A stretch of 64,000 nucleotides of DNA, taken from Phyllobates terribilis. Taxonomy: Eukaryota. The DNA lies in assembly GCF_046119375.1 (NCBI RefSeq), contig NW_027362762.1, positions 407,030,001 to 407,094,000 of the forward strand, given 5' to 3'. Below are positions 1,575 through 28,420 of this stretch, piece by piece. The first letter of the stretch is position 1; each line of letters begins with the position of its first letter. Below the pieces are notes generated by a model. It was not told where the DNA came from. It searched no databases and worked only from the letters and a program-made list of their open reading frames with translations. Both the position numbers and the translations under genes were made by a program.

Positions 1575-1944
1575 TAGAGATGAGCGTTGTTCTACTCGAA
1601 CTGTTCGCCAATCTCAAATTCGAGCTGTTTTGGGCGGTGTTCGAGCCGTTCGGCGAACACGAACAATTTGAGAAAAATTCGGCTGTTCGAGGTTATGTTC
1701 GATAACTGTTCGTGCACCAAAATCATAACTGGATTTTTTCTCAGTAATGATGAAAATTAATGTTAATACGCAGTTTGAGTGTACAGCGGGGTGGGGGGAG
1801 GGGCAGGGGATGGATCTCTGCAGGAACAATGAAGATCTCCATTTTTTTTTTCTCTTTCCCGCATTTACAGTGGGGAGGTGCAATCTGTCAGCCTATCAGC
1901 AGTGCACACAAGTGCTTTTTTTCACACAAGCAATGGCATGTGTC

Positions 1945-1980
1945 ATTGGCAGTGTATGTCACATGTCCTTGCCCTATAAG
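1945..1980 (+). promoter_or_regulatory. Candidate hAT-A promoter (reverse CCAAT plus TATA-like)
   Basis: attgg at 1945-1949 and TATAA at 1975-1979, facing the transposase; motif-level evidence only. Confidence 0.3.
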
Positions 1981-2479
1981 ACCAAGCCATTTTCCCCGTC
2001 GCCACCATTTTCTCACTGCTGCAGCTGCGTGTTAGACGGCACCGCTGTTGCTGTGTGCGCTATACCTTGTTAATTTCAAGCCAATTTTCGCACAAATCTA
2101 CAGATAGCTTGGGAGTAGGGAATAGTTGTGATTGCAGTCCTTTTAAGGACTAGGTTACAGCATTTCCTACGACTTTTATCAGGCAGGTCTGTGCTCTTAA
2201 ATAGATAGATTGTGGGAGTAAAGACTAATTGTAATTGGAGTCCTTTTCAGGACTAGGTTACATCAGTTCCTATCAGTTTTTGCCAGGCAGGTCTGTGCCA
2301 GTGCTGTGCAAATTTTTTTCACAGCATTTGGCTGAATCTAGCAAAGCTAATCCTTTTTGGCCTATTGCAGAGTGTGTTAGTCAGTGGAGTAGCCTATCTG
2401 TGTTGCAAGATATACCACCTGTGTATAGAATACCAATTTTTTTACTGCACCTAGTGAAGTAAAATCTTTTGGGCATAGC

Positions 2480-4715
2480 ATCATTCTATTAGTCCATCTA
2501 TACTGACCTCCATCAGGTTGCAAATTGAATATAATTTTTTTCTGCATCTAGCTCTGAAAAAATATTGGGCTTCTAGCTGTGTGTGGGACTTGTTGTATTA
2601 GTCCATCTATACTGACCTCCATCAGGTTGCAAACTGCATATATTTTTTTCTTCATCTACCTCTGAAAAAATATTGGGCTTCTAGCTGTGTGTGGGACTTG
2701 TTCTATTAATCCATCTATACAGACCTCCATCAGGTTGCAAACTGAATATATTTTTTTCTGCATCTACCTCTGAAAAAATATTGGGCTTCTAGCTGTGTGT
2801 GGGACTTGTTGTATTAGTCCATCTATACTGACCTCCATCAGGTTGCAAACTGAATATATTTTTTTCTGCATCTACCTCTGAAAAAATATTGGGCTTCTAG
2901 CTGTGTGTGGGACTTGTTCTATTAATCCATCTATACAGACCTCCATCAGGTTGCAAACTGAATATATTTTTTTCTGCATCTACCTCTGAAAAAATATTGG
3001 GCTTCTAGCTGTGTGTGGGACTTGTTCTATTAATCCATCTATACAGACCTCCATCAGGTTGCAAACTGAATATATTTTTTTCTGCATCTACCTCTGAAAA
3101 AATATTGGGCTTCTAGCTGTGTGTGGGACTTGTTGTATTAGTCCATCTATACTGACCTCCATCAGGTTGCAAACTGAATATATTTTTTTCTGCATCTACC
3201 TCTGAAAAAATATTGGGCTTCTAGCTGTGTGTAGGACTTGTTCTATTAATCCATCTATACAGACCTCCATCAGGTTGCAAACTGAATATATTTCTTTCTG
3301 CATCTACCTCTGAAAAAATATTGGGCTTCTAGCTGTGTGTGGGACTTGTTGTATTAGTCCATCTATACTGACCTCCATCAGGTTGCAAACTGAATATATT
3401 TTTTTCTGCATTTAAATCTGAAAAAATATTGGGCTTCTAGCTGTGTGTGGGACTTGTTCTATTAATCCATCTATACAGACCTCCATCAGGTTGCAAATTG
3501 AATATAATTTTTTTCTGCATCTAGCTCTGAAAAAATATTGGGCTTCTAGCTGTGTGTGGGACTTGTTGTATTAGTCCATCTATACTGACCTCCATCAGGT
3601 TGCAAACTGCATATATTTTTTTCTTCATCTACCTCTGAAAAAATATTGGGCTTCTAGCTGTGTGTGGGACTTGTTCTATTAATCCATCTATACAGACCTC
3701 CATCAGGTTGCAAACTGAATATATTTTTTTCTGCATCTACCTCTGAAAAAATATTGGGCTTCTAGCTGTGTGTGGGACTTGTTGTATTAGTCCATCTATA
3801 CTGACCTCCATCAGGTTGCAAACTGAATATATTTTTTTCTGCATCTACCTCTGAAAAAATATTGGGCTTCTAGCTGTGTGTGGGACTTGTTCTATTAATC
3901 CATCTATACAGACCTCCATCAGGTTGCAAACTGAATATATTTTTTTCTGCATCTACCTCTGAAAAAATATTGGGCTTCTAGCTGTGTGTGGGACTTGTTC
4001 TATTAATCCATCTATACAGACCTCCATCAGGTTGCAAACTGAATATATTTTTTTCTGCATCTACCTCTGAAAAAATATTGGGCTTCTAGCTGTGTGTGGG
4101 ACTTGTTGTATTAGTCCATCTATACTGACCTCCATCAGGTTGCAAACTGAATATATTTTTTTCTGCATCTACCTCTGAAAAAATATTGGGCTTCTAGCTG
4201 TGTGTAGGACTTGTTCTATTAATCCATCTATACAGACCTCCATCAGGTTGCAAACTGAATATATTTCTTTCTGCATCTACCTCTGAAAAAATATTGGGCT
4301 TCTAGCTGTGTGTGGGACTTGTTGTATTAGTCCATCTATACTGACCTCCATCAGGTTGCAAACTGAATATATTTTTTTCTGCATCTACCTCTGAAAAAAT
4401 ATTGGGCTTCTAGCTGTGTGTGGGACTTGTTCTATTAATCCATCTATACAGACCTCCATCAGGTTGCAAACTGAATATATTTTTTTCTGCATCTACCTCT
4501 GAAAAAATATTGGTCTTCTAGCTGTGTGTGGGACTTGTTCTATTAATCCATCTATACAGACCTCCATCAGGTTGCAAACTGAATATATTTTTTTCTGCAT
4601 CTAGCTCTGAAAAAATATTTGGCCTTCTAGCAGTGTGTGGGACTTTCTCTATTAGTCCATCTATACTGACCTCCATCAGGTTGCAAATTGAATATAATTT
4701 TTTTCTGCATCTAAC
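2480..4715. repeat. 108-bp tandem array (~21 units) with a duplicated 9-unit, 973-bp higher-order repeat
   Basis: The ttgggcttctagc motif recurs every 108 nt (2565, 2673, 2781...). Diagnostic variants recur at +973: caaattg 2521/3494, gtaggact 3231/4204, atatttcttt 3288/4261. Confidence 0.95.
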
Positions 4716-4829
4716 CCAGCCAATAGTTTTGGCCTAATACCACAGTTTGGCCACTCAGCTCTGCTCGGTTCCCATCCATTGTTTTTTTGTGCAAACAACT
4801 CCAGAGTTGTTAATTAGTTAACCACCAAA

Positions 4830-7800
4830 ATGAGTGGAAAAAGGCCTGCTGCTGATGGAAAGGGGAATAGGCGTGTTGGGAAGGGGAAAAAAGGTTGTGT
4901 CCGTGGGGTAGGTGTTAAAGCAACAGTAACATCTGCAGAAGAAAGACCATCTTCCAGCCAAACTAAAATGTCTACTTCTTTTAGCGGACAATGTGATAAG
5001 ATCCCTTTCTTACGGCCACGCCAATCACTACAAATTCCAGATGAGGCACAAAAACAGCAGGTGCTTCAACGGATATCAAGTGCTCCTTTAAGTGGGCTCT
5101 CCTCCACATCAACTTCAACATCACAAATACTCCAGTCCTCAAAGGTGTCACCCCAATCGCACTTGCTTCCTCACAGCTCCCAAATCTCCAGTTGCCCGTC
5201 TGAGTATGAGGTAGAACAGATGGTTGAGTCTGCAGAGCTGTTTACTCATACTATAGCCTGGGAATCAGAGGTCGACTCCAGCGCTTCTGTGAATCCAGAC
5301 GAGGAAATGATCTGCACTGATGCCCAGAATCTTTATGAGTCGGATCCAGGACCAGACGCAGAAGGTTCTGACCATAATGTAGACCCTCATTCCCAAACTG
5401 TAACTCCTGTTGGTGGAGACAATGAGGAAGACGATGATAAGACTCAAATACCTGATTGGAGCGACAACTTTAGTTTTTTGTCAGGGCAGGAACAGGTTGG
5501 CTCTGAGTACGACGGGTGTGATAACGCACAGGGTGATGAAGATGAGGTTGGAGATCCCACTTACTGTCAACCCACAGTCAGCCAAGAGATGAGGTCAGCA
5601 GAGGAGGTGGAGGAAGATGCTAGTGACGACGAGGTCAGGTTGCGCCTTCCTGGACAGAGACGTAGTACTGGAAGCACGTCAACAACTGCATCCTCAAACA
5701 CAACTCTGCCTCTCACCACAAGTCGTGGTGGCTCTTCAGGTCGCATGGGTGCTAAGCCTTGCATAGCCTGGGCATTTTTTCAGATCGATAAAGATGACCC
5801 AACTCGTGTTATCTGTAACATTTGTCAGCAAAAGCTAAGTAGAAGCCAAAAAATACATAGTTTGAGTACTTCATGCATGAACCGGCACATGGACATGAAG
5901 CATAAGTTGCAGTGGGAAGCTCAGTGTGCTACAATGCGGCCTAGCCGGCCGGGCCAACCACCGTCTGCCATATCTTGTGCATCCGCGGCCTCTTCATCCT
6001 CTGTGACTGGGGGGACAGCAGTCACACCTGTTTTGGGGCGCAGACCTGCCACCTCTTTACCCGCAACAGCCAGCGTGATTGGCAGGTCATCATTTTCTTT
6101 GGAGGTGGTAACACCAGCTGGTGTTGAGTGCTGTCCGACATCGATAGCACCACCTTTGGATCAAGGCAACCTAACATGTCCGCCTGCATCTTCCTCACAG
6201 ACCGGCAGTTTGCCGGGGACACCCTTATCAACCCCGTCTAAGCACAATAGCCAGCCCTCGGTCGCTCAGATGTGGACAAGTAAAAGACCACTTCCTCCTA
6301 GCCATGAGAAAGCTAAGAGGTTGAATTTCACCATCTGCAAGTTCTTGGCTACAGAAATGCTGCCTTTCCGCCTGGTGGACACAGAGAATTTTCGAGACCT
6401 TATGTCCGTCGCAGTGCCCCAGTACCAGATGCCCAGTCGGCACTACTTCTCAAAGAAAGGTGTGCCTGCGCTCCACCAGCATGTCGCACACAACATCACC
6501 GCTTCTTTGAGAAACTCTGTGTGTGACAGGGTGCATTTCACCACAGACACTTGGACGAGTAGGCATGGACAGGGGCGTTACATGTCGCTGACTGGGCACT
6601 GGGTATCTATGGTGACAGCAGGACAAGGGGCTGCTGTCCAAGTCTTGCCGTCCCCACGAGTTGTGCGTCAATCCTCTTTATGTCAAAGTTCCTCCACTGC
6701 TTCTGCCTCCTCAACCTCCTCTCAGTCTTCCACCTGCACCCAAAGCCTGTCTGGTCATGCCACAAGCTTTCTAACTGCGCAGAAGGGATCCTGCACACCT
6801 CCTTACTATGCTGGCAGTAGGGCTCAACGTCATCAGGCGGTTTTTACATTGAAATGTCTGGGAAATGTGAGTCACACAGCTGAGGAGTTGTGGTCAGCTC
6901 TGGAGAACCAATTTCATGAATGGTTGTCTCCACTGGACCTGAAACCAGGGAAGGCCGTGTGCGACAATGCTGCAAACCTGGGTGCGGCCCTTCGCCGGGG
7001 CAATGTCACACACGTGCCTTGTATGGCTCACGTGTTGAACCTGGTTGTCGAGCAATTTTTAGCCCACTATCCCAGACTAGATGGCCTTCTGCAGAGGGCA
7101 CGGTCGCTGTGTGCTCACTTTCGCCGTTCGCATCCCGCAGCTCAGCGACTTACATCTCTACAGAAGTCGTTGGGCCTGCCACTTCACCGGCTAAAATGCG
7201 ATGTGCCTACCCGGTGGAATTCAACTCTGCACATGTTGCAGCGACTGTGGCAGCACCGACAAGCCCTGGTGCAATACGTTCTGACGTATAGCCTGGGCCA
7301 ACGAGATCCAGAGGTGGGGCAAATCACGCTGGAGGAGTGGTCTCAGATCAGGGACCTATGCACCCTTCTGCACAGTTTTGAAATGGCGACGAAGATGTTT
7401 AGTGCTGACGATGCCATTATCAGCATGACTATTCCGGTGATTTACATGCTGGAGCACATGTTAAACAGAATTCGGAGTCAGATGGTGGCACAAGAGGAGG
7501 TGGAGGAAGTAGAGGAGGAGGAGTTGTATGCGGAAGGGCTAACATCTGCAAGGTCCAGACGGTCGGCAGCACCAAGGCGGCAGGCATGTGAGGGTGGGGG
7601 AGATGGTTTTACCAGGGCGCATGGTAGCAGCCAAACTAGTGAGGAAGGTGCATCAGCCCAGGAAGAAGTGGAGGACGAACTGATGGAAGACTCATCAGAT
7701 GAGGGAGACCTTGATCACATTTCTGTTGTGCGAGGTTGGGGGGAGAGGACAGAGGAAGGAAGCATGATTGTTACCTCGCCACCAACACAACAGGGACTTG

Positions 7801-8531
7801 GTGCTCCTGGATGCGTAACACACATGAGTGCCTTCTTGCTGCACTACCTGCAACATGACCCTCGAATTGTGAGAATTAGAAATAATCCTGACTACTGGGT
7901 TGCCACACTGTTAGATCCCCGGTACAAAAGTAAATTTGCAGAAATTATTCCTGCCATAGAAAGGGATGCACGCATGCAGGAGTATCAGCAGAGACTGTTG
8001 CAGAATCTTACATGTGCTTTTCCACAAAATACCAGTGGTGCACGTAGTGAATCTCACAGTTCCAACTTGCCAACCGTGGGACCGTCAAGTGTTCAGCACT
8101 CAAACCGTAACAGAACCACAGTATCTGCTGGTAACATCAATTTTGCGGAATCATTTCACCACTTTTTTAGCCCATCCTTTGCAAGGCCACAGGAGACAAG
8201 AAGTCTGACACATAGTCAACGCCTAGAGACGATGGTACAGGAGTATCTCCAAGTAAACATTGAAGCCACGACTGTGTCACTGGACCCTTGCTCTTTTTGG
8301 GCTTCCAATCTGGATAAATGGCCGGAGCTAGCCACTTACGCCTTGGAGATCTTGTCATGCCCCGCAGCCAGCGTTCTGTCTGAACGTGTGTTCAGCGCTG
8401 CTGGTGGTGTGCTGACAGATAAGCGCACGCGGCTCTCCACTGATAATGTAGACAGACTCACGTTCATAAAGATGAACAAATCATGGATCCGAAACGACTT
8501 TTCTACCCCTGTGTCATCCTGGGGAGAGTAA
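4830..8531 (+). CDS. hAT transposase with BED zinc finger, intact 1233 aa
   Basis: BED finger (WAFF...CNIC...HMDMKH); catalytic D (FTTDTW), D (VCDNAAN) and E (SVLSERVFSAAG); CxxH (CMAH); TRWNS; LLDPRYK; C-terminal dimerisation domain; no stops. Confidence 0.96.
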   Translation: MSGKRPAADGKGNRRVGKGKKGCVRGVGVKATVTSAEERPSSSQTKMSTSFSGQCDKIPFLRPRQSLQIPDEAQKQQVLQRISSAPLSGLSSTSTSTSQILQSSKVSPQSHLLPHSSQISSCPSEYEVEQMVESAELFTHTIAWESEVDSSASVNPDEEMICTDAQNLYESDPGPDAEGSDHNVDPHSQTVTPVGGDNEEDDDKTQIPDWSDNFSFLSGQEQVGSEYDGCDNAQGDEDEVGDPTYCQPTVSQEMRSAEEVEEDASDDEVRLRLPGQRRSTGSTSTTASSNTTLPLTTSRGGSSGRMGAKPCIAWAFFQIDKDDPTRVICNICQQKLSRSQKIHSLSTSCMNRHMDMKHKLQWEAQCATMRPSRPGQPPSAISCASAASSSSVTGGTAVTPVLGRRPATSLPATASVIGRSSFSLEVVTPAGVECCPTSIAPPLDQGNLTCPPASSSQTGSLPGTPLSTPSKHNSQPSVAQMWTSKRPLPPSHEKAKRLNFTICKFLATEMLPFRLVDTENFRDLMSVAVPQYQMPSRHYFSKKGVPALHQHVAHNITASLRNSVCDRVHFTTDTWTSRHGQGRYMSLTGHWVSMVTAGQGAAVQVLPSPRVVRQSSLCQSSSTASASSTSSQSSTCTQSLSGHATSFLTAQKGSCTPPYYAGSRAQRHQAVFTLKCLGNVSHTAEELWSALENQFHEWLSPLDLKPGKAVCDNAANLGAALRRGNVTHVPCMAHVLNLVVEQFLAHYPRLDGLLQRARSLCAHFRRSHPAAQRLTSLQKSLGLPLHRLKCDVPTRWNSTLHMLQRLWQHRQALVQYVLTYSLGQRDPEVGQITLEEWSQIRDLCTLLHSFEMATKMFSADDAIISMTIPVIYMLEHMLNRIRSQMVAQEEVEEVEEEELYAEGLTSARSRRSAAPRRQACEGGGDGFTRAHGSSQTSEEGASAQEEVEDELMEDSSDEGDLDHISVVRGWGERTEEGSMIVTSPPTQQGLGAPGCVTHMSAFLLHYLQHDPRIVRIRNNPDYWVATLLDPRYKSKFAEIIPAIERDARMQEYQQRLLQNLTCAFPQNTSGARSESHSSNLPTVGPSSVQHSNRNRTTVSAGNINFAESFHHFFSPSFARPQETRSLTHSQRLETMVQEYLQVNIEATTVSLDPCSFWASNLDKWPELATYALEILSCPAASVLSERVFSAAGGVLTDKRTRLSTDNVDRLTFIKMNKSWIRNDFSTPVSSWGE

Positions 8532-8569
8532 AAGCTTGATGATTGGTTAAAATCACCCTACCAACCGTT

Positions 8570-8850
8570 TTAAGCTTTCAAATTACTAATCATGTTTATC
8601 TGTATCTTGGCTGGAAAATAATTTGGGCTTTGTAGCAGTGTGCAGCACTGATTCTATTAGGCCATCTATAATAAGCTCCACCAGATTTAAAATTACTAAT
8701 CATGTTTATCTGTATCTTGACTGGAAAATAATTTGGGCTTTGTAGCAGTGTGCAGCACTGATCCTATTAGGCCATCTATACTAAAGCTTCACCAGATTTA
8801 AAATTAATAATAATTTTTAGCTGCATCTAGCCCGGAAAATAATTTTGGGG
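8570..8850. repeat. ~120-bp degenerate repeats 3' of the transposase, related to the 108-bp 5' unit
   Basis: Two to three copies of aaattactaatcatgtttatctgtatcttg.ctggaaaataatttgggctttgtagcagtgtg...ctattaggccatctata. Shares ttgggct/ctatta/ccatctata with the 5' array. Confidence 0.75.
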
Positions 8851-8854
8851 CTCC

Positions 8855-10411
8855 GAGATGCGCAAGACACATAAGTGCCTTCTTGCTGCACTACCTGCAG
8901 CATGACCCTCATATTGTCAGAATTCGAAGTAATCATGACTACTGGGTTGCCACACTCTTAGATCCCCCAAACTTTTCGATCAACCTTTTCATTTTAATAA
9001 AGACCAAAAAAATGGTCATTTTTGAAATTATAAGCATTAGCAGGTTGTTAGAAACTGAAATCAAACAGTTTTCAACTCAAAACTTTATTCTAGGTGATGT
9101 TACATTTTCACATAGGACCCCTTGTTCGAAAGGAGCTTCTGAACTCTCTCGTCCATTGAATGTGTCAGGTTTTGGATGGTTTCTGCTTCAATTGTTTTGC
9201 ATGAGGACAGAATACCCTCCCAGAGCTGTTGCTTAGATGTGAACTGCCTCCCGCCATCATAGACACTCCTTTTAATGATGCTCCAAAGGTTCTGAATGGG
9301 GTAGAGGTCAGGGGAGCATGGGGGTCACACCATAAGTTTGTCCCCTTTTATGCCCATATCAGCCAGAGATGCAGATGTTTTATGTGCAGCATGAGATGGT
9401 GCATTATCATGCAGAAAAATGATCTTGCTGTGAAATACACGGTTCTTCTTCTTGAACCATGGCAGGAAGTGCTGTTTGAGAAAATCCACATACATTATGG
9501 AGTTCATCTTTAGCGCCTTCAGGGATTCTAAAGGGGCCGACAATCTCTCTCCCCATGATTCCAGCCCAAAACATTACTCCACCTCCTCCTTGTTGGCGCT
9601 GTAGCCGTGTTTGCGTGGGGTGTCCATCAACCAGCCATCCTCCACTCCATCCATCTGGACCATCGAGCGCTGGACGGCACTCATTCGTGAACAAAACAGT
9701 TTTGAAATCAGTCTTCATGTAATGTTTGGCCCACTGGAGCCGTTTCTGCTTGTGTGAAGTGGATAGAGGAGGTCGACAGGATGGCGTATGCACAGCTGCA
9801 AACCTCTGAAGGACCCTGCATCTTGTTGTTCGGGGGACGTTGGAGGCACAAGCAGCTTCAAAAACTTGTCTGCTGCTATGACAAGGCTTTTTTGCCGCTG
9901 TTCGTTCAACCTGACGTAATTGCCTGTAGGAAAGAGTCCTCAATTTGCCCTTATCAGCACGCACACGTGTGTACTGTGAATCAGCTACATACTTCTTGAT
10001 TGCCAAGACACTTCATCCTGATCATCGCACAATGTTGATTGTAGTCATGCCTTGACCTAAACACTCCACAATTTGTTGCTTCTCAGCAGCCGACACATCC
10101 TTTTTCTTTCCCATTTTGGCAGAAAATGTAGGCTGCTTAATAATGTGAGACAGCCTTCTTAAGTAGTCTTGCCTTTCATTGGACACACCTGCCAAACTAA
10201 TTAGCACAGGTGTCTGCAATTGCTTACAGTGATATAAAGAGCCCTGACACACATCACCATCAATGAGTTTAACTGACAAACAAACAAATTCTTCCCTTAT
10301 CACTCCTAAACACTTTTTGCATAATAATTTGGAACACAGTGTACATGTGCTTTTCCACAAAACACCAGTGGTTCACGTAGTGAATCTTACAGTTCTAACT
10401 TGCCAACCGTG
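8855..10411 (+). pseudogene. Diverged paralogous hAT transposase fragment (8855-8967 and 10342-10411) split by a Tc1 remnant
   Basis: 8860-8966 aligns to 7813-7920 (about 12 differences in ~110 nt). 10342-10411 aligns to ~8009-8078. Confidence 0.85.
8968..10341 (-). mobile_element. Decayed Tc1/mariner element, DD37E-type spacing (TRT-like); transposase ~9100-10114, one TIR lost
   Basis: 5' TIR CACTGTGTTCCAAATTATTATGCA with TA at 10342-10343. MGKKKDVSAAEK start; LFTNE (D>N); HDNAPSH...*PPCSPDLYPIQ (37 residues, E>Q); frameshifts and a stop. Confidence 0.88.
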
Positions 10412-10863
10412 GTCTGTATGGAGTTGTTCAATAAAGGGCCCAAAATTAAGATAACATAGATGGGAGAGGTCTCTATGAATAGGAATTCCTAAGTATTTGA
10501 TACCCTGTGAGGGCCAGGCAAAGGGAAAGTTGGACTGGATGGAATCCTATATGGATTTGGGGAGGGAGACATCGAGGGCCTCAGACTTCGCTGCATTGAT
10601 TTTAAAATTTGACCATGTAACAAAGTGATCTATTTCAGCCATAACAGCATGGATGGATATATGTGATTGAGTGATATATACTAGGACATCATCAGCAAAT
10701 AGAGAGCACTTGTACTCGGTGCCTCCCACCTCAATCCACCTAATATTGGGGTTATGGCGAATTGATGAGAGCAGGTGCTCCGTCACTAGGATGTATAAGA
10801 GAGGGGACAGAGAACATCCCTGCCTTGTCCCATTGGTGATTGTGAAAGGTGATGAAAATGTTC
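10412..10863 (-). pseudogene. L1-clade LINE RT fragment, part 2
   Basis: Translates FSSPFTITNGTRQGCSLSPLLYIL...SLFADDVLVY...FKINAAKSE...KYLGIPI. Confidence 0.9.
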
Positions 10864-12077
10864 TGACGCGCCCCCTGGGCCTTGGGACACCCGGAGCCGG
10901 ACCCTTTTTGGTGGATGCTGGTGGTTGTTGTCTCCGTGGCGGCAACCAGGTTCCGTGGCTCAGGGCGGTCAAACCAGTGGCGGAACTATTTATGTGGTTT
11001 TGATGTTTAAATGTCCGACTACGCCACCCGTGGATTGCGGTCAGAGTGAACCGCCGCTCCAGGGCAGACCGCTGAGGCTGGTGTTGTGGGTGCAGCAGAG
11101 CGTAGCATAACTCCCCACGGGAGGAGTATAGCCTCAGGGCAGTGTATGCGGAGGATGGGGGTGATGGTGCAGGGCAGCAGCAGTAATGACACGGAGTCAG
11201 TGATGCAGTCCAGGGCCTTTACTCACAGTTCTTATTATCCAGACCACGTCTGCAGGTAACGGCTGCCCACGTCGTACTGTGCTCACCAGGTGAGGGGCTC
11301 AGACAACTCCCAGATAACTTTGGAGTGCTTCACAGGACCCCCTTTGTGTGTCCTTTGTCTGGCCTTTCTTACCAACCCTTCTGTCCGGCTGCCTCGGGCC
11401 TCCTCTTGGTAAACTTGGCGCCAGTTTCCCTGACCCTATGTGGTGCCTTCCTAGCGGGTGTAGCGAGGGGCTGCGCCACATAAAATGTCACAGCCTCCTG
11501 TTTCTAGCTGAGGGTCGTTTCCTGCCTCCACTAGTTTCGGGGACCGGTCTCCCCCTTTGGCCTGACCCCTCCACGCAGGTGGATTCGGGCGTGCGGTGGC
11601 GACTCGCCCGTCCGCACCCCTGAGATCCCTTCGTTCCTCGTTCCTGGAGCCTTCTCCGCTCCTCTTCCTTCCTTCTCCCTCTTCCAGGCCTGGGCCTCTG
11701 TTACTAGGCCCGCCTCTGGAGCAGAGCTCATGCAGAGCCCCTGCTCCCTGCCACTTCTGCTCAGACTTCTCTGCACTGAACTAAGATGGTGCCCACCTTT
11801 TATACTCCCTTCTCAATGCACCCAGGAACTGCTTCCTCCCTGCTCCTGCACTACAGGGTTCCCCTTCCTCAGTGTTCCCTCCCCCCACTCCAGCCAGGGA
11901 CAGGGACTGTCGTGCCCATCTCAGGGGCATATTGGTCGCCCTGCCCCACGGCAATGTGGTGTAATGCATGCAGGTGTCGGGTCCTGATCCACACTACATC
12001 CTTACCTGAGAGTGAGATATCACACCTCTGGGTGAGGTGCAATACCTCTGTTGCAACCGAGCCCTCAGGGTGCTACA
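10864..12077 (-). mobile_element. Solo LTR (1214 bp) inserted in the L1 fragment
   Basis: TG...CA ends; 4-bp TSD GTTC (10860-10863 / 12078-12081); TATAAAA on the minus strand at 11798-11804. The L1 reading frame rejoins across it. Confidence 0.85.
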
Positions 12078-12240
12078 GTTCCATTTATCTTCAGCCTAGG
12101 TGACGTATTGCGATACAGGGCCGTGATTTTGGCTATAAAAGTGTCCCCTAGACCCCTACCCCAAGCTTTTTAAGAGAATCATATATGGCGTGCCAGGAGA
12201 CTCTATGGAATGCTTTCTCAGCATCCAACGAGAGTATCTA
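12078..12240 (-). pseudogene. L1-clade LINE RT fragment, part 1
   Basis: Translates ILSLDAEKAFHRVSW...LGVG, then after a frameshift FIAKITALY...KINGT, which joins FSSPF of part 2. Confidence 0.88.
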
Positions 12241-12310
12241 ATTACAAATTTTTAACTGCATCTAGCCCAGGAAATACTTTGTGCCTAGTAGCAGGGTCTG
12301 CTAGTCAGCG

Positions 12311-12613
12311 GATTATCCCGGCTGTTAAGCAAGCTACACCACCTGTAGTTTGGACACTTCATTTTATCAAAGGAAATGCTTCGGGACCACGGGATACTCA
12401 GTGAAGAGCATCAGGAGGCACCCCAAGGCATAGGGGCTCGGACTGGCAGTAGGATGCCTTGCGGTGGACAGCCGAGCTCGATCCTTATAAAAGCTTTTTA
12501 ACTGCAGCAGCTTTAGTGGACGCTACTGGAGCTGGAATTACGCGGCTGCTGGCATGAGACTTGCCCTCCAATAGATCCTTGTAAATGGATTTAAAGTGTA
12601 TTTATTCAAATTA
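12311..12613 (-). pseudogene. 18S rRNA: Degenerate 18S rRNA fragment (helix 18 / 530-loop region into V4)
   Basis: Reverse complement reads ...tacactttaaatcc...ggatctattggagggcaagtctcatgccagcagccgcgtaattccagctccagtagcg...ctgcagttaaaaagc...ggatcgagctc...gatgctcttcactgagtatccc...cccgaagc, matching the universal eukaryotic 18S core and amphibian-like V4 from memory. The match is strong at ~12342-12613 and weaker to 12311. Confidence 0.9.
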
Positions 12614-13119
12614 GAGAGACAATTTAAATTAAAAAGCTTAGAGCTGCCTCCACCACAGGGGGGCTCGCTCGACCCACCAGCGGACAGGCACCAGTATTGG
12701 GAGAGGGGGGCTGGCCGTCAGGGTTCACCGCGGCTCTGGCACAAACCCGGCGACACGGAGGTGGCACGGGCAGGAGCGGACTGAACGTGTCGGCTTCTCA
12801 CTTTTTGGATTTTAGAAGGGCATGACATGCCTATATCTGTGTCTCCCCCTCCTTTTACTCCTCCACCTCTTTTCTTTTCGCATGACTATATGTACTTGTC
12901 ACTTTTCCATGTGTTAGTTGTGTCTTCTGAGCAGTTTGTCAGCTTTTGGACACCTTTGAAGGTGTTTTCTATGTGTTTCTATGTGTTTTTGTTTGCCTGC
13001 CGTTAGTTTTAACGGTGTTCGAAGGTGTTCGACGAACAGTTCGACGAACAGTTCGGCGAACACACGGGTGTTCGACGAACCGAACCGAACTCGAACACTA
13101 CGGGGGTGGCTCAACACTA

Positions 13120-13520
13120 ATTAGGAAGTGGATCTCCCAATGTGTTTGCCTATGCAGTGAATGAAAGGTTTGCCAAAAATTTGAAGGCACTCCAATGCCC
13201 CTTAGAAGAGACATGAAGGTCAGAGGTCCTCCTGAAAACAATGTTCCCATCAATAGGAAGTGGGTCTCCCATAGTTTTGACCTACTCCGTGAATGCAAGG
13301 GCTACAAAAATTGGGAGGCACTCCAATGCCTCTTGGAAGAGACGTAGAGAGCATCATGAAAAAATGTTCCCATTATTAGGAAGTGGGTCTCCCATAGTGT
13401 TGGCCTATTCAGTGAAAGCAAGGACTGCCAAAAATTTGGAAGCAATCCAATGCACCTTGAAAAAGACGTGGAGGAGGGCTTCATTAAAAAAAAATGTTCC
13501 CATTAAGAAGGAGTGGGTCT
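13120..13520. repeat. ~130-bp tandem repeat of hAT-B (right part)
   Basis: Same unit as 1139-1574; gtggg/atctccc recurs at 13128, 13260, 13383 and 13513. Confidence 0.85.
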
Positions 13521-13722
13521 CCGATACTTGTAATGCCCATGCACTTTGTGTATGGGCTGAAAAATATATATCTCTGGGGGGTATACATGAACATACTGTA
13601 TACATTTTTTTTTACGGGCATCATGAACACCCTTTATAAAAATGATGTGGGTGTTGCATCACGGACAACGGTGACCCTGGTGATATGGTGGTGAAGGATG
13701 AGGAGAAGGAGGAGGACAAGAG

Positions 13723-14939
13723 TGTAGTGCCGGCGTCCCTGCCCTCTGCTAGGCAGGGACGCTGCTCCCCTCACCGCTCTGCCCCGTGCCCGGCGTCCCT
13801 CTCCCGCTCTGCTGTCAGCGCGCGCTCCTTCCCGGCGTCCTCCTCCCGCTCTGCTCTCTGCGCGCGCTCCTTCCCGGCCCCTGTGCTTAGGGCGCGCGCG
13901 CGCGCTCCCCTCCTCTTATAGGGGCCGCGCGCGTCGTCCTAAGGAGTCCCCGGCCAATGGCCGGAGGACTTCATCATATATAAGGCACCTCCTCCAAAAT
14001 GGAGGTGCCCGAGCAATGTTGTTTGCACCTGTGTCTCACCTTTGCTTCAGCCCTCAGGTCCCGTTGCCAGTTACCTGCCAGTTACCTGTCAGATTCCTGC
14101 CTGATTACTTGCTACCTGTCTGCTAGTCTGAGGTCCGACGGTCTAACTTACTACTCCTGTCAGTCTGTCTAAGGACCAGCCTGCCCGCTCACCTGGGAGC
14201 GCTTCTCCGCTACCTGCCTGCTTGCCTGCCCGGAGGCTCCGCTGTCACGTGCTGTGACCACCAGCTATTCCAGAGACTCTCGCCCGCTCACCTGGGAGCG
14301 CACATCAGCTACCTGCCTGCCTGCCTGAGGTCCGACGGTCTGCCTACCAACTCCTGTCAGTCTGTCTATGGACCAGCTTGCCCGCTCACCTGGGAGCGCA
14401 CATCTGCTATCTGCCTGCTAAGCCTACCTGGAGGCTCCGCCGTCACGTGCTGTGACCACCTGCCTGTCCAGTGACTCCTGCCCGCTCACCTGGGAGCGCT
14501 CATCTGCTACCTGTCTGTTTGCCTACCCGGAGGCTCTGCTGTCACGTGCTGTGACCACCCGCCTGTCCAGAGACTTCTGCCCGCTCACCTGGGAGCGCTC
14601 ATCTGTCGCCTGTCCGCTGGTCTTCCTGGAGGCTCCGCCGTCACATGCTGTGACCACCCGTTCATCCAGAGACTCTCGCCTGCTCACCTGGGAGCTCTCG
14701 TCTATCTTCAGCCGCCACAGGTCGTACCAACCCTATACCTAGAGACTGCCCCGGTTACTTGCCGTGACCTCCAGCCCCGTTCACTCAGAGACTGTCCCGT
14801 TCACTCAGAGACTGTCCCGTTCACTCAGAGACTGTCCAGGTCACCTCCTGTGACTGCCTGCCTGGTCGCCACCCGCTCCCGTACAAGGACCGCCCCCTTG
14901 TATTGTAGCCCAGAGGTTCCGCCTCCCAGACCCGTTACA
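13723..14939 (+). repeat. 5' LTR (1217 bp)
   Basis: tgtagtgccg...ccgttaca; about 11 substitutions and one 2-bp indel versus the 3' LTR by eye. Confidence 0.96.
13954..13983 (+). promoter_or_regulatory. LTR promoter: CCAAT and TATA box
   Basis: CCAAT 13954-13958 and TATATAA 13977-13983, downstream of a GC-rich U3. Confidence 0.7.
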
Positions 14940-14950
14940 GTTGCTCGGGC
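14940..14950 (+). promoter_or_regulatory. Self-priming primer-binding site (not tRNA-type)
   Basis: TTGCTCGGGC (14941-14950) is the exact reverse complement of LTR 14007-14016. No TGG tRNA-type PBS follows the LTR. Confidence 0.8.
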
Positions 14951-14951
14951 C

Positions 14952-15902
14952 ATGGAACCCGGTGGCACCCAAGCTCCCTCGCTCTCGGACCTGTGTGATG
15001 AACTGTCCCGTCAAAGGTCCCAACAGGAGTCCATCTTGGGTCACCTGCGGAATGTCAATACTCGCCTGGATACTCTGACTGCTCCACCGACAACCTCCGC
15101 CAGTGCCATGTCTCGCAATCCGGCAGCTCCGCTGCCCACTAATACCATGGTATCCTACCCCGGACCCCGGATTTCTGCACCTCCTCGCTTCGGAGGCGAC
15201 TCCGTCCAGGCTCGGGGCTTCATAAATCAGTGCACCCTGCACTTTGAACTATTGTCCCACCAGTTTAACTCCGACCGAGCCAAAATTGCATTCATCATGT
15301 CCCATCTCACCGGGGAGGCTCTGGCCTGGCTAAATCCTCTATGGGAGAGAGGAGACCCCCTGGTGTCCAACTTGCCTGCTTTTCTCACGGCTTTCCGGAA
15401 AGTCTTCGACGAACCCGGACGGAAGACCTCATCCGCATCATCATTGCTACGCCTCCGTCAGGAAAGCCTCACCGTGGGCCAATATGCCATACGGTTCCGT
15501 ACCCTTGCCTCGGAGCTGGCCTGGGATAACGACGCTCTGGTTTCCGTCTTCTGGGAGGGTCTGTCCGGCCGTATTAAAGATGAACTTGCCGGTCGGGACA
15601 TTCCTACCACTCTCGATGACTTAATAACTCTTGCCACCCGGATTGACCTACGGTTCCAGGAGCGTGCCAGAGAGGTCACCCGTGAGAGGAGGTTACTACG
15701 TCTAGCTCCTACTTTTCAGAAACCCGTCACTCCTTCTGTCTCTAACCAGGTACACCCTCCTGAGCCTATGCAGGTCGACCAGACCAAGATGGTCAAGACC
15801 CGTCAGGACTTACGCCGTGCCGAGGGGACCTGCTTCTACTGTGGCAGTAAGGAGCACCGGATCCATGCCTGCCCGGAGAGGTTGGGAAACGCCTGTGTCT
15901 AG
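14952..15902 (+). CDS. gag: Gag (capsid plus CCHC zinc knuckle)
   Basis: ATG immediately after the PBS; PPRFGGD...RGFINQC capsid motif; CFYCGSKEHRIHAC = CX2CX4HX4C. The ORF-track start at 14850 is a GTG inside the LTR. Confidence 0.93.
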   Translation: MEPGGTQAPSLSDLCDELSRQRSQQESILGHLRNVNTRLDTLTAPPTTSASAMSRNPAAPLPTNTMVSYPGPRISAPPRFGGDSVQARGFINQCTLHFELLSHQFNSDRAKIAFIMSHLTGEALAWLNPLWERGDPLVSNLPAFLTAFRKVFDEPGRKTSSASSLLRLRQESLTVGQYAIRFRTLASELAWDNDALVSVFWEGLSGRIKDELAGRDIPTTLDDLITLATRIDLRFQERAREVTRERRLLRLAPTFQKPVTPSVSNQVHPPEPMQVDQTKMVKTRQDLRRAEGTCFYCGSKEHRIHACPERLGNACV

Positions 15903-15944
15903 GTTCGCTCAGAGAGGTCCACCTAGACAAGAATAAATCCTCTC
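15884..15944 (+). promoter_or_regulatory. -1 ribosomal frameshift signal: G GGA AAC plus predicted H-type pseudoknot
   Basis: Slippery heptamer 15884-15890 in the correct X XXY YYZ phase. Stem 1: tgtctaggt 15896-15904 / acctagaca 15921-15929. Stem 2: gagagg 15912-15917 / cctctc 15939-15944. The -1 frame is open into pol. Confidence 0.82.
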
Positions 15945-18900
15945 CATCCCTGCTGTTGTCAGTTTCAATCGTCTACGGGGAGAACCGTTATTTCGAACTA
16001 GCCCAACTGGACTCTGGAGCAGCCGGGAATCTTATTTCACAGTCCCTGGTAGAGAAATACCGCATCCCCACCAAACCTCTGGCTGTACCCTTGTCTGTGG
16101 CTGCCGTGGATGGGGGGCTCTTACCACGCCCCATCCAACTCATCACCGAATCCATTACTCTGCAGGTGGGAATGCTGCATTCTGAAAGTATCTCCTTTCA
16201 TGTTCTGCCTGGACTCTCTCACGCCCTCTTGCTAGGTCTGCCTTGGCTCCAGAAACATGCACCCGTGCTTGACTGGCAAACCGGAGAAGTCCTTCGCTGG
16301 GGACAAGACTGTCATAAGACCTGCCTGGTTCCCGTCCATCCCGTCCGTCCCTCTCCTACCCCAGCTAATCTACCTGGACTTCCGATTCCTTATTGGTCTT
16401 ATGCTGATGTCTTTAATAAAAAGGAGGCAGAGACCTTACCCCCTCATAGACCATACGACTGTCCCATCGACCTGTTACCCGGTACTACTCCTCCCCGTGG
16501 GCGTATTTATCCTTTATCCGCTGCTGAGACCCGGTCGATGTCCGAATATATTGAGGAGAATCTGGCCAGGGGATTCATCCGGAAATCTACCTCCCCGGCG
16601 GGAGCAGGCTTCTTTTTCGTCAAAAAGAAGGACGGCTCTCTCCGTCCCTGTATAGACTATAGAGGCCTAAACCAGATCACGGTGAAGAATAAGTACCCCC
16701 TTCCGCTCATTCCAGAATTATTTGATCGTCTGAGGGGGGCTAGAATCTTCACCAAACTAGACCTCCGTGGGGCATACAACCTGGTTCGTATCCGTCAGGG
16801 GGATGAATGGAAGACGGCATTCAACACCCGGGACGGCCACTATGAATACCTGGTAATGCCCTTTGGTCTCTGTAACGCTCCTGCCGTCTTTCAAGAGTTG
16901 GTCAATGACATCTTCCGGGACCTTCTCTACTCCTGCGTAGTGGTGTACCTGGACGACATCTTGGTCTTCTCTCCGGATCTCCAGACTCACCGGAGGGACG
17001 TTCGTCAGGTCCTGCTCAGGCTCAGGCAGAATCACCTCTTCGCTAAATACGAGAAGTGCCTCTTTGAGCAGACCTCGCTTCCGTTTTTGGGCTACATTAT
17101 TTCTCAGACCGGCCTACGAATGGATCCAGAGAAACTGTCTGCCATCGAGAAATGGCCCCGACCGGAGGGGTTGAAAGCCATTCAGCGGTTCCTGGGCTTC
17201 GCCAACTACTACCGCCTCTTCATACCACACTTCTCTTCCCGGACTGCCCCAATTTCCGCGCTCACCCGTAAGGGTACTAATCCCAAACAGTGGCCGCCCG
17301 AAGCAGAAGAAGCCTTTCTTTCCTTAAAACAGGCCTTCTCTTCCGCCCCGGTGCTGCATCGCCCGGACGGCAACAAGCAGTTCTTCCTGGAAGTGGACGC
17401 CTCCTCCTCTGGAGCTGGAGCGGTACTTACTCAAAAATCTTCTTCCGGGAGGATGGTAACTTGCGGCTTCTTCTCTAAACTCTTCTCCTCCTCAGAGCGC
17501 AATTATTCCATAGGAGATCGAGAGTTATTGGCCATCAAACTGGCATTGGAGGAGTGGCGTTACCTGCTTGAGGGGGCTCTTCACCCGGTAATAATTTACA
17601 CTGACCAAAAGAACTTGGCTTACCTCCAGCATGCCCAGAGACTTAACCCGCGCCAAGCCCGGTGGTCCTTGTTTTTTGCTCGTTTTGATTTTGTCCTTCA
17701 TTTTCGCCCGGCTGACAAAAACGTCAAGGCGGACGCCTTGTCTCGATCCTTTCTGGTATCTGATCTCGAGGAAGATCCGAAACACATCATCGATCCCGCC
17801 AGAGTAATGCAGGTGGCTCCCGTGAGTCTAAATCGTCTCCCTCCCGGAAAGACGTTCGTATCAGTACCTGATCGGGAGAAGATCCTTCACTGGGGTCACT
17901 TGTCTAAACTGGCTGGCCACGCTGGTCAGAAGAAGACCCTCCAGCTTATTTCCCGTCACTACTGGTGGCCTACCCTGCACAAGGATGTAATAGACTTTGT
18001 TTCTGCCTGTGTGTCCTGCGCCCGCAACAAGGTTCCGAGACATCTGCCAGCCGGTCGCCTCCTTCCGCTCCCAGTACCTGCTGCCCCCTGGCAGCATATT
18101 GCAATGGACTTCATAACTGACCTCCCACTCTCTGCCGGTTGTACGGTCATTTGGGTGGTCGCTGACCGCTTCTCCAAGATGGCTCATTTCGTTCCCCTAC
18201 CAGGCCTCCCGTCTGCACCCGAGCTAGCTAGAGACTTTATTCGTCACATCTTCCGTCTTCATGGCCTGCCCCTCCACATCGTGTCGGATCGTGGGGTACA
18301 GTTCACCTCACGCTTCTGGAGAGCCACTTGTAAACTACTAGACGTCACCCTGGACTTCTCTTCCGCTTACCACCCACAGTCCAATGGTCAAGTGGAGCGG
18401 ATCAATCAGAACCTGACCAGTTACCTCCGGCACTTCGTTAATGCCCACCATTCTGACTGGGTGGATCTCCTACCATGGGCCGAGTTCTCTTACAATAATC
18501 ACGAGAGCGAATCCTCCTCCAAATCCCCGTTTTTTGTAGTCTTTGGTCAGCATCCTAGGATTCCTTTTCCTGTCTCCACCTCGGTGGACAACCCGGCTGC
18601 GGAATCTCTCGTTAGCAAATTTTCCTCCATTTGGGAGAGTACCCGATCCGCACTCCTTCAGTCGTCCGAACGGATGAAAAGACACGCTGACAAAAAACGC
18701 CTGGATCCTCCTCAATTTCGTCCAAGAGATAAGGTCTGGCTCTCATCTAAATATGTTCGACTCAAGATACCTTCTTACAAGTTAGGGCCTCGGTTCATCG
18801 GACCTCTGGAGGTCACCAGTCAGATCAACCCGGTGGCCTATAAATTGAAACTCCCGGCCAACTTACGGATCCCTAACTCCTTCCATGTATCTCTCCTCAA

Positions 18901-19351
18901 ACCTGTGGTACTTAACTCTTTTTCCAAGTCTACAGGTACGCCTCCTGCTCCGGTTTCCGCTGAGGACGAGTTTGAGGTAGAGAACATTCTTGCCACCAAA
19001 AGGGTAAGAGGAAAGACCTTTTTTCTGGTAGATTGGAAGGGGTTTGGTCCTGAGGAGAGAACGTGGGAGCCCCGGGAGAACATCCATGCCCCTCTCATCC
19101 TAGCTAAATTTCTGTCTGGCCTAAAAAAGGGGGGGCCTAAAGGGGGGGGTACTGTAGTGCCGGCGTCCTTGCCCTCTGCTAGGCAGGGATGCTGCTCCCC
19201 TCACCGCTCTGCCCCGTGCCCGGCGTCCCTCTCCCGCTCTGCTGTCAGCGCGCGCTCCTTCCCGGCGTCCTCCTCCCGCTCTGCTCTCTGCGCGCGCTCC
19301 TTCCCGGCCCCTGTGCTTAGGGCGCGCGCGCGCGCGCTCCCCTCCTCTTAA
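15884..19351 (+). CDS. pol: Pol polyprotein (protease, RT, RNase H, integrase, chromodomain)
   Basis: LDSGA protease; VYLDDIL RT; EVDAS RNase H; HHCC plus D(AMDF)-D(VSDRG)-E(VERIN) integrase; GPRFIGP module; FEVENIL...FLVDWKGFGPEERTWEP chromodomain; no stops. Confidence 0.96.
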   Translation, partial: GKRLCLGSLREVHLDKNKSSPSLLLSVSIVYGENRYFELAQLDSGAAGNLISQSLVEKYRIPTKPLAVPLSVAAVDGGLLPRPIQLITESITLQVGMLHSESISFHVLPGLSHALLLGLPWLQKHAPVLDWQTGEVLRWGQDCHKTCLVPVHPVRPSPTPANLPGLPIPYWSYADVFNKKEAETLPPHRPYDCPIDLLPGTTPPRGRIYPLSAAETRSMSEYIEENLARGFIRKSTSPAGAGFFFVKKKDGSLRPCIDYRGLNQITVKNKYPLPLIPELFDRLRGARIFTKLDLRGAYNLVRIRQGDEWKTAFNTRDGHYEYLVMPFGLCNAPAVFQELVNDIFRDLLYSCVVVYLDDILVFSPDLQTHRRDVRQVLLRLRQNHLFAKYEKCLFEQTSLPFLGYIISQTGLRMDPEKLSAIEKWPRPEGLKAIQRFLGFANYYRLFIPHFSSRTAPISALTRKGTNPKQWPPEAEEAFLSLKQAFSSAPVLHRPDGNKQFFLEVDASSSGAGAVLTQKSSSGRMVTCGFFSKLFSSSERNYSIGDRELLAIKLALEEWRYLLEGALHPVIIYTDQKNLAYLQHAQRLNPRQARWSLFFARFDFVLHFRPADKNVKADALSRSFLVSDLEEDPKHIIDPARVMQVAPVSLNRLPPGKTFVSVPDREKILHWGHLSKLAGHAGQKKTLQLISRHYWWPTLHKDVIDFVSACVSCARNKVPRHLPAGRLLPLPVPAAPWQHIAMDFITDLPLSAGCTVIWVVADRFSKMAHFVPLPGLPSAPELARDFIRHIFRLHGLPLHIVSDRGVQFTSRFWRATCKLLDVTLDFSSAYHPQSNGQVERINQNLTSYLRHFVNAHHSDWVDLLPWAEFSYNNHESESSSKSPFFVVFGQHPRIPFPVSTSVDNPAAESLVSKFSSIWESTRSALLQSSERMKRHADKKRLDPPQFRPRDKVWLSSKYVRLKIPSYKLGPRFIGPLEVTSQINPVAYKLKLPANLRIPNSFHVSLLKPVVLNSFSKSTGTPPAPVSAEDEFEVENILATKRVRGKTFFLVDWKGFGPEERTWEPRENIHAPLILAKFLSGLKKGGPKGGGTVVPASLPSARQGCCSPHRSAPCPASLSRSAVSARSFPASSSRSALCARSFPAPVLRARARALPSS
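19123..19149 (+). promoter_or_regulatory. Polypurine tract (two adjacent purine runs)
   Basis: aaaaaaggggggg (19123-19135), cct, aaagggggggg (19139-19149), ending 3 nt before the 3' LTR. Confidence 0.85.
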
Positions 19352-20371
19352 AGGGGCCGCGTGCGTCGTCCTAAGGAGTCCCCGGCCAATGGCCGGAGGA
19401 CTTCATCATATATAAGGCACCTCCTCCAAAATGGAGGTGCCCGAGCAATGTTGTTTGCACCTGTGTCTCACCTGTGCTTCAGCCCTCAGGCCCCGTTGCC
19501 AGTTACCTGCCAGTTACCTGTCAGATTCCTGCCTGATTACTTGCTACCTGTCTGCTAGTCTGAGGTCCGACGGTCTGCCTTACTACTCCTGTCAGTCTGT
19601 CTAAGGACCAGCCTGCCCGCTCACCTGGGAGCGCTTCTCCGCTACCTGCCTGCTTGCCTGCCCGGAGGCTCCGCTGTCACGTGCTGTGACCACCAGCTAT
19701 TCCAGAGACTCTCGCCCGCTCACCTGGGAGCGCACATCAGCTACCTGCCTGCCTGCCTGAGGTCCGACGGTCTGCCTACCAACTCCTGTCAGTCTGTCTA
19801 TGGACCAGCTTGCCCGCTCACCTGGGAGCGCACATCTGCTATCTGCCTGCTAAGCCTACCTGGAGGCTCCGCCGTCACGTGCTGTGACCACCTGCCTGTC
19901 CAGTGACTCCTGCCCGCTCACCTGGGAGCGCTCATCTGCTACCTGTCTGTTTGCCTACCCGGAGGCTCTGCCGTCACGTGCTGTGACCACCCGCCTGTCC
20001 AGAGACTTCTGCCCGCTCACCTGGGAGCGCTCATCTGTCGCCTGTCCGCTGGTCTTCCTGGAGGCTCCGCCGTCACATGCTGTGACCACCCGTTCATCCA
20101 GAGACTCTCGCCTGCTCACCTGGGAGCTCTCGTCTATCTTCAGCCGCCACAGGTCGTACCAACCCTATACCTAGAGACTGCCCCGGTCACTTGCCGTGAC
20201 CTCCAGCCCCGTTCACTCAGAGACTGTCCCGTTCACTCAGAGACTGTCCCGTTCACTCAGAGACTGTCCAGGTCACCTCCTGTGACTGCCTGCCTGGTCG
20301 CCACCCGCTCCCTTACAAGGACCGCCCCCTTGTATTGTAGCCCAGAGGTTCCGCCTCCCAGACCCGTTACA
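19153..20371 (+). repeat. 3' LTR (1219 bp)
   Basis: Near-identical to the 5' LTR; followed by TSD AAGAG. Confidence 0.96.
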
Positions 20372-28173: not shown

Positions 28174-28420
28174 TTAGCAGCCTTGCAGCACTGGGGTTTT
28201 GTGTTCCAACCCCACCAAGGACAAGATCTGCAAGGAGTTTGTAAGTTCTCCTGGTGTTTGTGAGGGTTTCCTCGGGGTACTTTTTTTTCTTCCCACACTC
28301 CAAAGATATACTGATAGGAAATTTAAATTGTGAGGCCCAATGGGGACAGTGCCACTTATGTCTGTAAAGCGCTGTGAAATTAATGGTGCTATATGAGTAA
28401 AATAAAATAAAAAAATTATT
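28174..28420 (+). mobile_element. tRNA-derived SINE (V-SINE-like core, L2-type tail)
   Basis: gcagccttgcagcactgggg...ccaccaaggacaagatctgcaaggagtttgta...cccacactccaaaga...tgtaaagcgctgtg...gctatat...(taaaa)n. Confidence 0.75.

Follow-up and report, generated by a model that had tools for sequence, protein, structure and literature searches.

Background

The hobo_AC element of Anolis carolinensis is an autonomous hAT transposon of 9-15 kb, with 11-bp terminal inverted repeats (TIRs) that start with TAG and a load of fragments from other transposable elements (TEs); its partner families have target-site duplications (TSDs) of the NTRNNYAN type (Novick et al., PMC3014272, in the part of that account drawn on here). 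DNA transposons as a class are said to evolve neutrally within vertebrate hosts, with no opportunity for cis-preference, and to persist through horizontal transfer (Zhang et al. 2020, PMC7070016, again in part). Here we describe a hAT element from the frog Phyllobates terribilis, found in a stretch of 64,000 nucleotides (hereafter the window; assembly GCF_046119375.1, contig NW_027362762.1, positions 407,030,001 to 407,094,000, forward strand). The element occupies positions 1575-13119 of the window, and between its transposase open reading frame (ORF) and its right end it carries pieces of a Tc1 transposon, an L1 retrotransposon, a solo long terminal repeat (LTR) and ribosomal DNA (rDNA). We conclude with good confidence that it belongs to a very abundant transposase-carrying family that has moved as a unit of ~11 kb to tens of thousands of sites, likely as a single succession of master copies which added and trimmed passengers in the dispensable right arm, with selection likely preserving transposase function.

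Movement as one unit and copy number

An earlier note on the window, made from its letters alone, had proposed that the composite transposed whole and that its cargo had been gained by ancestral copies, and the genome bears out both proposals. A 28-nt pattern spanning the joint between a displaced piece of the ORF and L1 has 38,827 exact matches on both strands of the 10.6-Gb genome; exact patterns of 26-28 nt match 57,617 times at the end of the ORF, 64,339 times at the right end and 85,201 times at the left end, and the reversed controls of all four have 0. Among the junction matches listed, all 30 loci compared match the cargo at 95-99%. For closer comparison ~20 kb was fetched around the first 41 junction matches listed, which lie in the first part of one contig (C1). 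Both ends were found in 26 of the 41 copies, and 23 of these 26 are flanked by 8-bp TSDs (20 exact, 3 with one mismatch), all of them different; 20 of the 23 have T as their second base and A as their seventh. The remaining three flank pairs do not match. The distinct TSDs and shared cargo junctions show that the composite transposes as a single unit. Among 38 sequences (gap-rich copies left out), pairwise ORF distances are correlated with cargo distances (r=0.88, Mantel p=0.001). Loci chosen by the end of the ORF continue into Tc1 in 27 of 30 cases, the other 3 being interrupted by later insertions, and 25 of the 30 loci chosen by the right end bear cargo. The hAT copies also insert into one another, and a few tandem or nested copies occur, for example near C1:2.99-3.01 Mb.

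Capture-recapture over the first 25 Mb of C1, a rough estimate from one region, gives ~55,000-66,000 copies, which at a median length of 11.2 kb amount to ~0.6-0.75 Gb, or 6-7% of the assembly. The ORF is open for at least 1227 amino acids (aa) in 6 of the 41 sampled copies as well as in the window copy, whose stop-free transposase and perfect 8-bp TSD are as first reported (Table 1); judged by these full-length open frames, the family would be autonomous. The stretch was found in none of the runs recorded as RNA, and the contigs of one run guessed to be RNA (X15), which cover the junctions, are not counted as evidence.

Stepwise loading of the right arm

The cargo occurs in five nested structural states, here called S0 to S4. 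In contigs from two other organisms (D and E) the sequences on either side of the LTR site are directly joined and lead into a longer L1, and contigs from two more (B and C) cover the LTR. A motif from the longer L1 has 799 exact matches in the frog genome, and 20 of the 30 loci returned for it were fetched. These older-state loci contain L1 and neither Tc1 nor LTR; in nearly all of them the sequence continues through the rDNA towards the common right end, and TSDs flank 13 of the 14 that have two ends. The L1 of S0 is ~2.3 kb long; it has a poly(A) tail and is bracketed by a target duplication that ends at TTTTT/AA (six S0 copies). Poly(A), TSD, 5' truncation and a TTTT/AA site, the L1 consensus, are marks of target-primed reverse transcription, and the poly(A) tail and flanking duplication therefore place the retrotransposition of L1 in the hAT arm itself.

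L1 has lost its 3' part in S1, by a deletion at a 7-nt microhomology, and S2 is the first state with a 1.5-kb patch in which Tc1 lies between two ORF pieces. Copies with full ORFs and TSDs already had L1, rDNA and the right end by then. At 4 sites the ORF pieces of the patch still show the S0/S1 state, and over their 189 bp they have 6 private changes; the likely donor was therefore an older, dead sister copy. The LTR is missing in 7 of the 41 copies, which show a clean, single GTTC empty site; it therefore entered L1 after L1 was aboard. rDNA is present in every state seen. Thus the arrival of the cargo as an already decayed right end, which the earlier note had envisaged, gives way to insertions into the arm and then into its passengers, and its related donor copy survives for the 1.5-kb patch, might apply to the rDNA, and is refuted for L1 and the LTR.

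No free Tc1 was seen in the first 0.8 Mb fetched, but a later protein search found a free family with a 337-aa transposase, 94-95% identical to the cargo, of which 14 of 15 copies have both 26-bp TIRs and most are flanked by TA. Intact Tc1 ORFs of equal score also recur at a spacing of ~108 kb (C11 21.2-22.0 Mb and others, C363), which suggests a large tandem or segmental repeat unit. A free relative of L1 was likewise lacking from that first 0.8 Mb, no search being aimed at the L1 source or the exact LTR source, and joins of Tc1 to ORF pieces were not found among the contigs of D and E, which is not proof of their absence. Copies of the hAT (several, L031-L110) often contain inserted LTR elements whose 1.2-kb LTRs are 65-79% like that of the cargo.

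Age and decay of the cargo

The decayed pieces listed by the earlier note were all recovered: Tc1 with stops, frameshifts and catalytic D-to-N and E-to-Q changes, the reverse transcriptase (RT) piece of L1, and a solo LTR with TG...CA ends and its GTTC duplication. The 18S fragment is present too, as part of a larger rDNA cargo that also includes 162 bp of 5' external transcribed spacer (5'ETS); the two pieces are colinear, with ~970 bp of rDNA absent between them. No protein-coding host exon was seen. That note's view of a cargo much older than its carrier is not supported: the cargo decayed on board, and most of it is no older than the host. The old and young groups differ by 2.5% (64/2566) in the cargo and by 2.1% at synonymous ORF sites, and the ORF seems younger because its nonsynonymous divergence is 0.7%. 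The majority sequence of the cargo Tc1 stands 0.5% from the free family in S2, 1.7% in S3 and 3.2% in S4, with a stop present by S2, the catalytic E change and a first frameshift by S3, and another frameshift by S4; the D-to-N change does not belong to the S4 majority. The 18S piece is 6.3-7.1% from true 18S in S0-S2 and 9.7% in S4. The 108-bp array, near-homogeneous as first described (95% matches), is no age marker, since its units number 0-26 across 23 copies; its homogeneity comes from array turnover, seen in a near-perfect 973-bp (9-unit) block duplication within 2484-4429.

The transposase lineage

The majority ORF sequences of successive states are nearly additive in their distances (S1-S2 43, S2-S3 26, S3-S4 19, S2-S4 45, S1-S4 74), divergence within groups falls from 2.0 through 1.7 and 1.4 to 0.5%, and the tree of 44 ORFs is ladder-like. 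Nonsynonymous (N) and synonymous (S) changes are divided 38N:32S on the trunk of this ladder against 900N:349S among changes private to resting copies (p=0.0026), the ratio of their rates (dN/dS) on the trunk is ~0.36, and the trunk has no stop, against 57 private ones. The deficit lies in the conserved part of the protein: at conserved codons (the 300 that at least half of 34 homologues share) the trunk has 0:6 and private changes 221:86 (p=0.0006), and the well-aligned columns give 12:19 against 503:189 (p=0.0001), whereas the poorly aligned region shows no deficit (26:13 on the trunk, p=0.58). The signal persists without a recombinant-looking 310-bp patch (p=0.023) and within S2-S4 alone (p=0.006), and a separate first count of shared versus private changes gave 33:29 against 499:202 (p=0.006). 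On the same trunk the passenger Tc1 ORF accumulated 25N:10S, a stop and frameshifts. The trunk deficit of amino-acid change is likely the result of purifying selection, which is unexpected for a DNA transposon in vertical descent.

Two further observations concern the trunk. A roughly twofold mutation rate in the transposing lineage, hinted at by Tc1, was considered and rejected, four-fold sites of the ORF being equidistant from S1 in S2, S3 and S4 (3.4, 3.3 and 3.2%). Over the cargo at 8980-12797, C>G changes are richer on the trunk (14/74 versus 51/630 private; p=0.005 in a post hoc test of one class among seven). This could be a trace of error-prone gap repair but is no more than a lead.

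Non-autonomous partners and derivatives

Among the first 100 left-end matches, 36 have no ORF-end or junction marker nearby, and 20 of these were fetched: 14 belong to a transposase-less family of 4-6 kb, 3 have an inverted ORF and 3 are of other kinds. The 4-6-kb family shares just its ends with the hAT element (148 bp and ~200 bp), TSDs were found in 11 of the 14, and some pairs are 98-99% alike; it accounts for about a quarter of left ends, and ORF-bearing copies outnumber it by ~3 to 1. Its members (L303, L306, L308-L317, L319, L320; for example L309, 73-5990) have 200-bp arrays in long inverted arms, with inner segments flipped between copies. In the inverted derivative (L318, L321, L322; also L141 and L157) the transposase ORF runs opposite to its usual direction with respect to the left end; copies share the breakpoints, and the derivative was therefore amplified after the inversion.

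Weighing the explanations

That the family is an L1-like cut-and-paste transposon, a single long-lived master lineage, inherited vertically and with purifying selection acting on its transposase within the host, filling 6-7% of a 10.6-Gb genome while its dead passengers serve as a neutral clock, is a proposition to which we give about even credence. Several points weigh against the succession of master copies. The partner family with TSDs of its own means that the enzyme acts in trans too, which excludes strict cis action. Of the 43 ORF differences between S1 and S2, 15 lie in the 310-bp patch (window 7860-8170) that overlaps the region duplicated in the arm; differences so clustered mean that copies recombine and that the lineage is not strictly clonal, and they suggest recombination at the birth of S2. 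Trunk changes at conserved codons number just 5-6, the contrast between Tc1 (25N:10S) and hAT (38N:32S) in raw counts is small, and ~5-6 of the 25 Tc1 changes could be artefacts of alignment, as they fall within a small rearrangement. The split of S3 from S4 was taken from the tree after the fact, the two samples, of 41 and 20 loci, are small and come wholly from the first part of C1, and picking by exact match favours young copies. Furthermore, most sampled S0 copies are without an ORF, so that S0 is visible through an offshoot, and no ancestor free of rDNA or of L1 was found: an L1-free probe gave 13 matches, all point mutants with L1, although diverged ancestors could escape it.

The same anatomy would also result if purifying selection came from repeated transfer, horizontal or by introgression, between related species or populations, each transfer needing a working transposase. 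Selection on DNA transposases is reported solely across transfers in the part of Zhang et al. 2020 (PMC7070016) relied on here, and close relatives of the element occur in organisms B-E, with D and E holding the older state. We nevertheless think transfer unlikely, if the most credible of the alternatives, since this one genome preserves every intermediate state as fossils whose ages fall in order, the Tc1 passenger at its entry is 0.5% from this genome's own free family, and selection is seen on each step (dN/dS 0.36, 0.33 and 0.34). The best named relatives of the transposase, moreover, all come from anurans (44-45% identity), and none of the 44 hits is a near-identical protein in a distant species, in a search of proteins of 678-2158 aa with 7983 candidates scored. 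Another reading is that the cargo was retained as helpful to the element, through promoter, spacing or chromatin effects, instead of being neutral ballast. The cargo-bearing form is nearly fixed among ORF-bearing copies and each new state displaced the previous one, yet hitch-hiking on one master would lead to the same turnover of states, earlier contents of the arm were themselves deleted and superseded, and the cargo diverges at the synonymous rate of the ORF while the Tc1 ORF decays; helpful cargo is accordingly improbable.

Slightly more improbable still is that a young hAT took over an old, decayed right end from a related copy in one step. Recombination between elements is reported for hobo_AC (PMC3014272, in part), the rDNA is already 6-7% diverged in the oldest state seen, and the older-subfamily states and private changes of the ORF pieces round Tc1 are what such an adoption would leave. 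For the 1.5-kb patch the idea holds and for the rDNA it may; it is refuted for L1, the LTR and the age of Tc1, because L1, rDNA and right end were linked to full ORFs before Tc1 came and the LTR came later still, and because Tc1 was fresh at capture and the divergence of the cargo equals that of synonymous ORF sites. Nested insertion at this locus after integration, or spread by segmental duplication, has a negligible chance: the few tandem or nested copies would suit it, against which stand tens of thousands of identical junctions on both strands and 23 different TSDs.

For the favoured succession of master copies the order of events may be put as follows. A scrap of rDNA would already have lain in the arm when L1 retrotransposed into it (S0); the 3' end of L1 would then have been deleted at the microhomology (S1); the patch of Tc1 and ORF pieces would have been copied from the older dead sister, probably during gap repair (S2); an LTR element would have inserted and been reduced to a solo LTR (S3); and the young clade that includes the window copy would have followed (S4). 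As to why the transposase should be selected, most copies may be silenced, so that a rare copy active in germ cells would be both enzyme source and accessible substrate; such coupling would amount to an effective, if partial, cis-preference, with non-autonomous partners still able to ride along. The selection must stem either from partial coupling of enzyme and substrate or from transfer bottlenecks between related hosts.

If true, within-host selection would make the family a counter-example both to 'vertical inactivation' and to the lack of cis-preference in DNA transposons, and would point to enzyme-substrate coupling based on silencing; the ladder with transposase selection is the part likely to surprise the specialist. 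The family lends itself to testing, with tens of thousands of copies, nested markers that order its subfamilies and a passenger transposase gene for neutral comparison. A single long element makes up ~6-7% of a giant genome, where short non-autonomous copies would have been expected to prevail. Some ~60,000 young-looking 'copies' of Tc1, L1, LTR and 18S never moved by themselves, and repeat landscapes and 18S-based counts would misread them (a rough first look gives 79,151 18S candidates in the genome). The tolerance of at least 4 kb of foreign DNA is relevant to vectors.

Anatomy of the element and its surroundings

The element has the features of the hAT superfamily, namely an 8-bp TSD, ~11-bp TIRs (which agree at 9/11 positions) and a transposase with BED finger, DDE-type motifs and C-terminal dimerisation domain; the same ends recur in sampled copies, and the motifs are kept among the 34 homologues. 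Motifs and TSD pattern suggest the Ac clade, not Buster or Tip. The window ORF has 16 private amino-acid changes and 3 silent ones relative to its subfamily majority. The filler at 8968..8979 we infer to be a templated insertion, the scar of end joining.

Table 1. Features of the hAT element in the window
Feature	Position	Strand	Remarks
Left TSD, 8 bp, ATTAGGAA	1567..1574	.	Sits within 129-bp tandem repeat
Left arm with 11-bp TIR	1575..2483	+	Initial 148 bp common to non-autonomous partner family
108-bp tandem array, ~20.6 units, 95% matches	2484..4713	+	0-26 units among copies
hAT transposase ORF, 1233 aa, no stops	4830..8531	+	
Transposase domains	BED finger aa 313-359; dimerisation domain aa 1140-1214		Profile matches PF02892, PF05699
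Transposase motifs			TTDTW, VCDNA, CMAH, RWNST, SERVF
110-bp repeat, ~70% like 108-bp array	8573..8849	+	Unit count differs between copies
hAT ORF piece (= 7798-7920)	8845..8967	+	With older-subfamily states
Short filler at deletion joint	8968..8979	.	In older copies repeats the preceding 14 nt, one mismatch
Tc1 passenger, ORF broken	8980..10341	-	5' TIR 10316-10341 retained; ~220 bp of 3' end and TIR gone
Second hAT ORF piece (= 8009-8079)	10342..10412	+	Starts with TA, the insertion target of Tc1
L1 ORF2 (RT) fragment	10413..10863	-	3' part removed by two later deletions
Solo LTR, 1214 bp, TG...CA, 4-bp TSD GTTC	10864..12077	.	Within L1; older subfamilies without LTR
Remaining L1 fragment	12078..12235	-	As far as 5' truncation point
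hAT arm sequence	12236..12348	+	12236-12253 is the surviving L1 TSD copy, ends at TTTTT/AA site
18S rRNA fragment, 270 bp	12349..12618	-	85% to the genome's intact 18S
rDNA upstream of 18S (5'ETS), 162 bp	12636..12797	-	82% to intact rDNA
Right arm, subterminal 12-bp repeats and 11-bp TIR	12798..13119	+	Final ~200 bp common to non-autonomous partner family
Right TSD, 8 bp	13120..13127	.	Identical to left 8-mer ATTAGGAA

The insertion site is a tandem repeat of 123-129 bp (1203-1574, resuming at 13120-13526), possibly the array of another element. Beyond it, at ~13700-20300, lies a Gypsy-type LTR retrotransposon with repeated LTR features at both ends, gag at 14475-15902 and pol as a 1166-aa open frame with chromodomain at 15851-19351. 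A 443-aa open frame at 42407-43738 matches PF13843 (piggyBac-like DDE_Tnp_1_7), and pieces of more distant hAT relatives (~70% identity) lie at 20522-20600 and 27882-28801.

Comparison with known systems

Nothing in the literature searched, with most subscription papers, Repbase and Dfam outside its scope, describes this family or any DNA-transposon lineage that is both ladder-like and under selection. Plant Pack-TYPE elements are non-autonomous, whereas the frog hAT family has a full transposase ORF. Mammalian L1 has a ladder-shaped phylogeny. The frog family resembles it in its successive subfamilies, selection on its own protein and dead copies left behind, with the difference that L1 is a retrotransposon with cis-preference through its RNA (PMC7070016; this and the accounts cited below are drawn on in part). 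Anuran 'ZBED4-like/ZBED6-like' transposases of the Ac/hobo/Hermes type share the BED finger, dimerisation domain and motifs with 35-49% identity over residues 480-1233, whereas the frog element, unlike these gene models (none above 49% identity), is mobile and of high copy number. Long-active frog DNA transposases with conserved ORFs and dN/dS below 1 are also known from Xenopus, in Kolobok/T2-MITE and TxpB, but that case, compared between species or strains, is read as domestication or host benefit, and the part of the account used here holds no cargo clock and no test of trunk against tips (PMC6004289).

Closest in build is hobo_AC, likewise a cargo-laden autonomous hAT with 11-bp TIRs and recombination between copies, although it numbers 25 (290) copies and is outnumbered by its non-autonomous partners (3,272); its authors infer the capture of old genomic DNA, where the frog family shows the insertion marks of L1 and LTR inside the element, and the part of their account drawn on reports no selection on the transposase (PMC3014272). 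Pack-TIRs such as the frog Pack-hAT-N8_XT similarly carry foreign DNA at several sites with distinct TSDs; that element has three copies and pieces of host genes, while the family described here has its own transposase, TE debris and rDNA (Tan et al. 2021, PMC8277862). A parent host locus is identifiable for the 430 bp of rDNA alone, the rest being TE debris of which L1 and LTR inserted themselves. The family is thus a true hAT behaving as a multicopy Pack-TIR, an extreme case of known cargo hauling.

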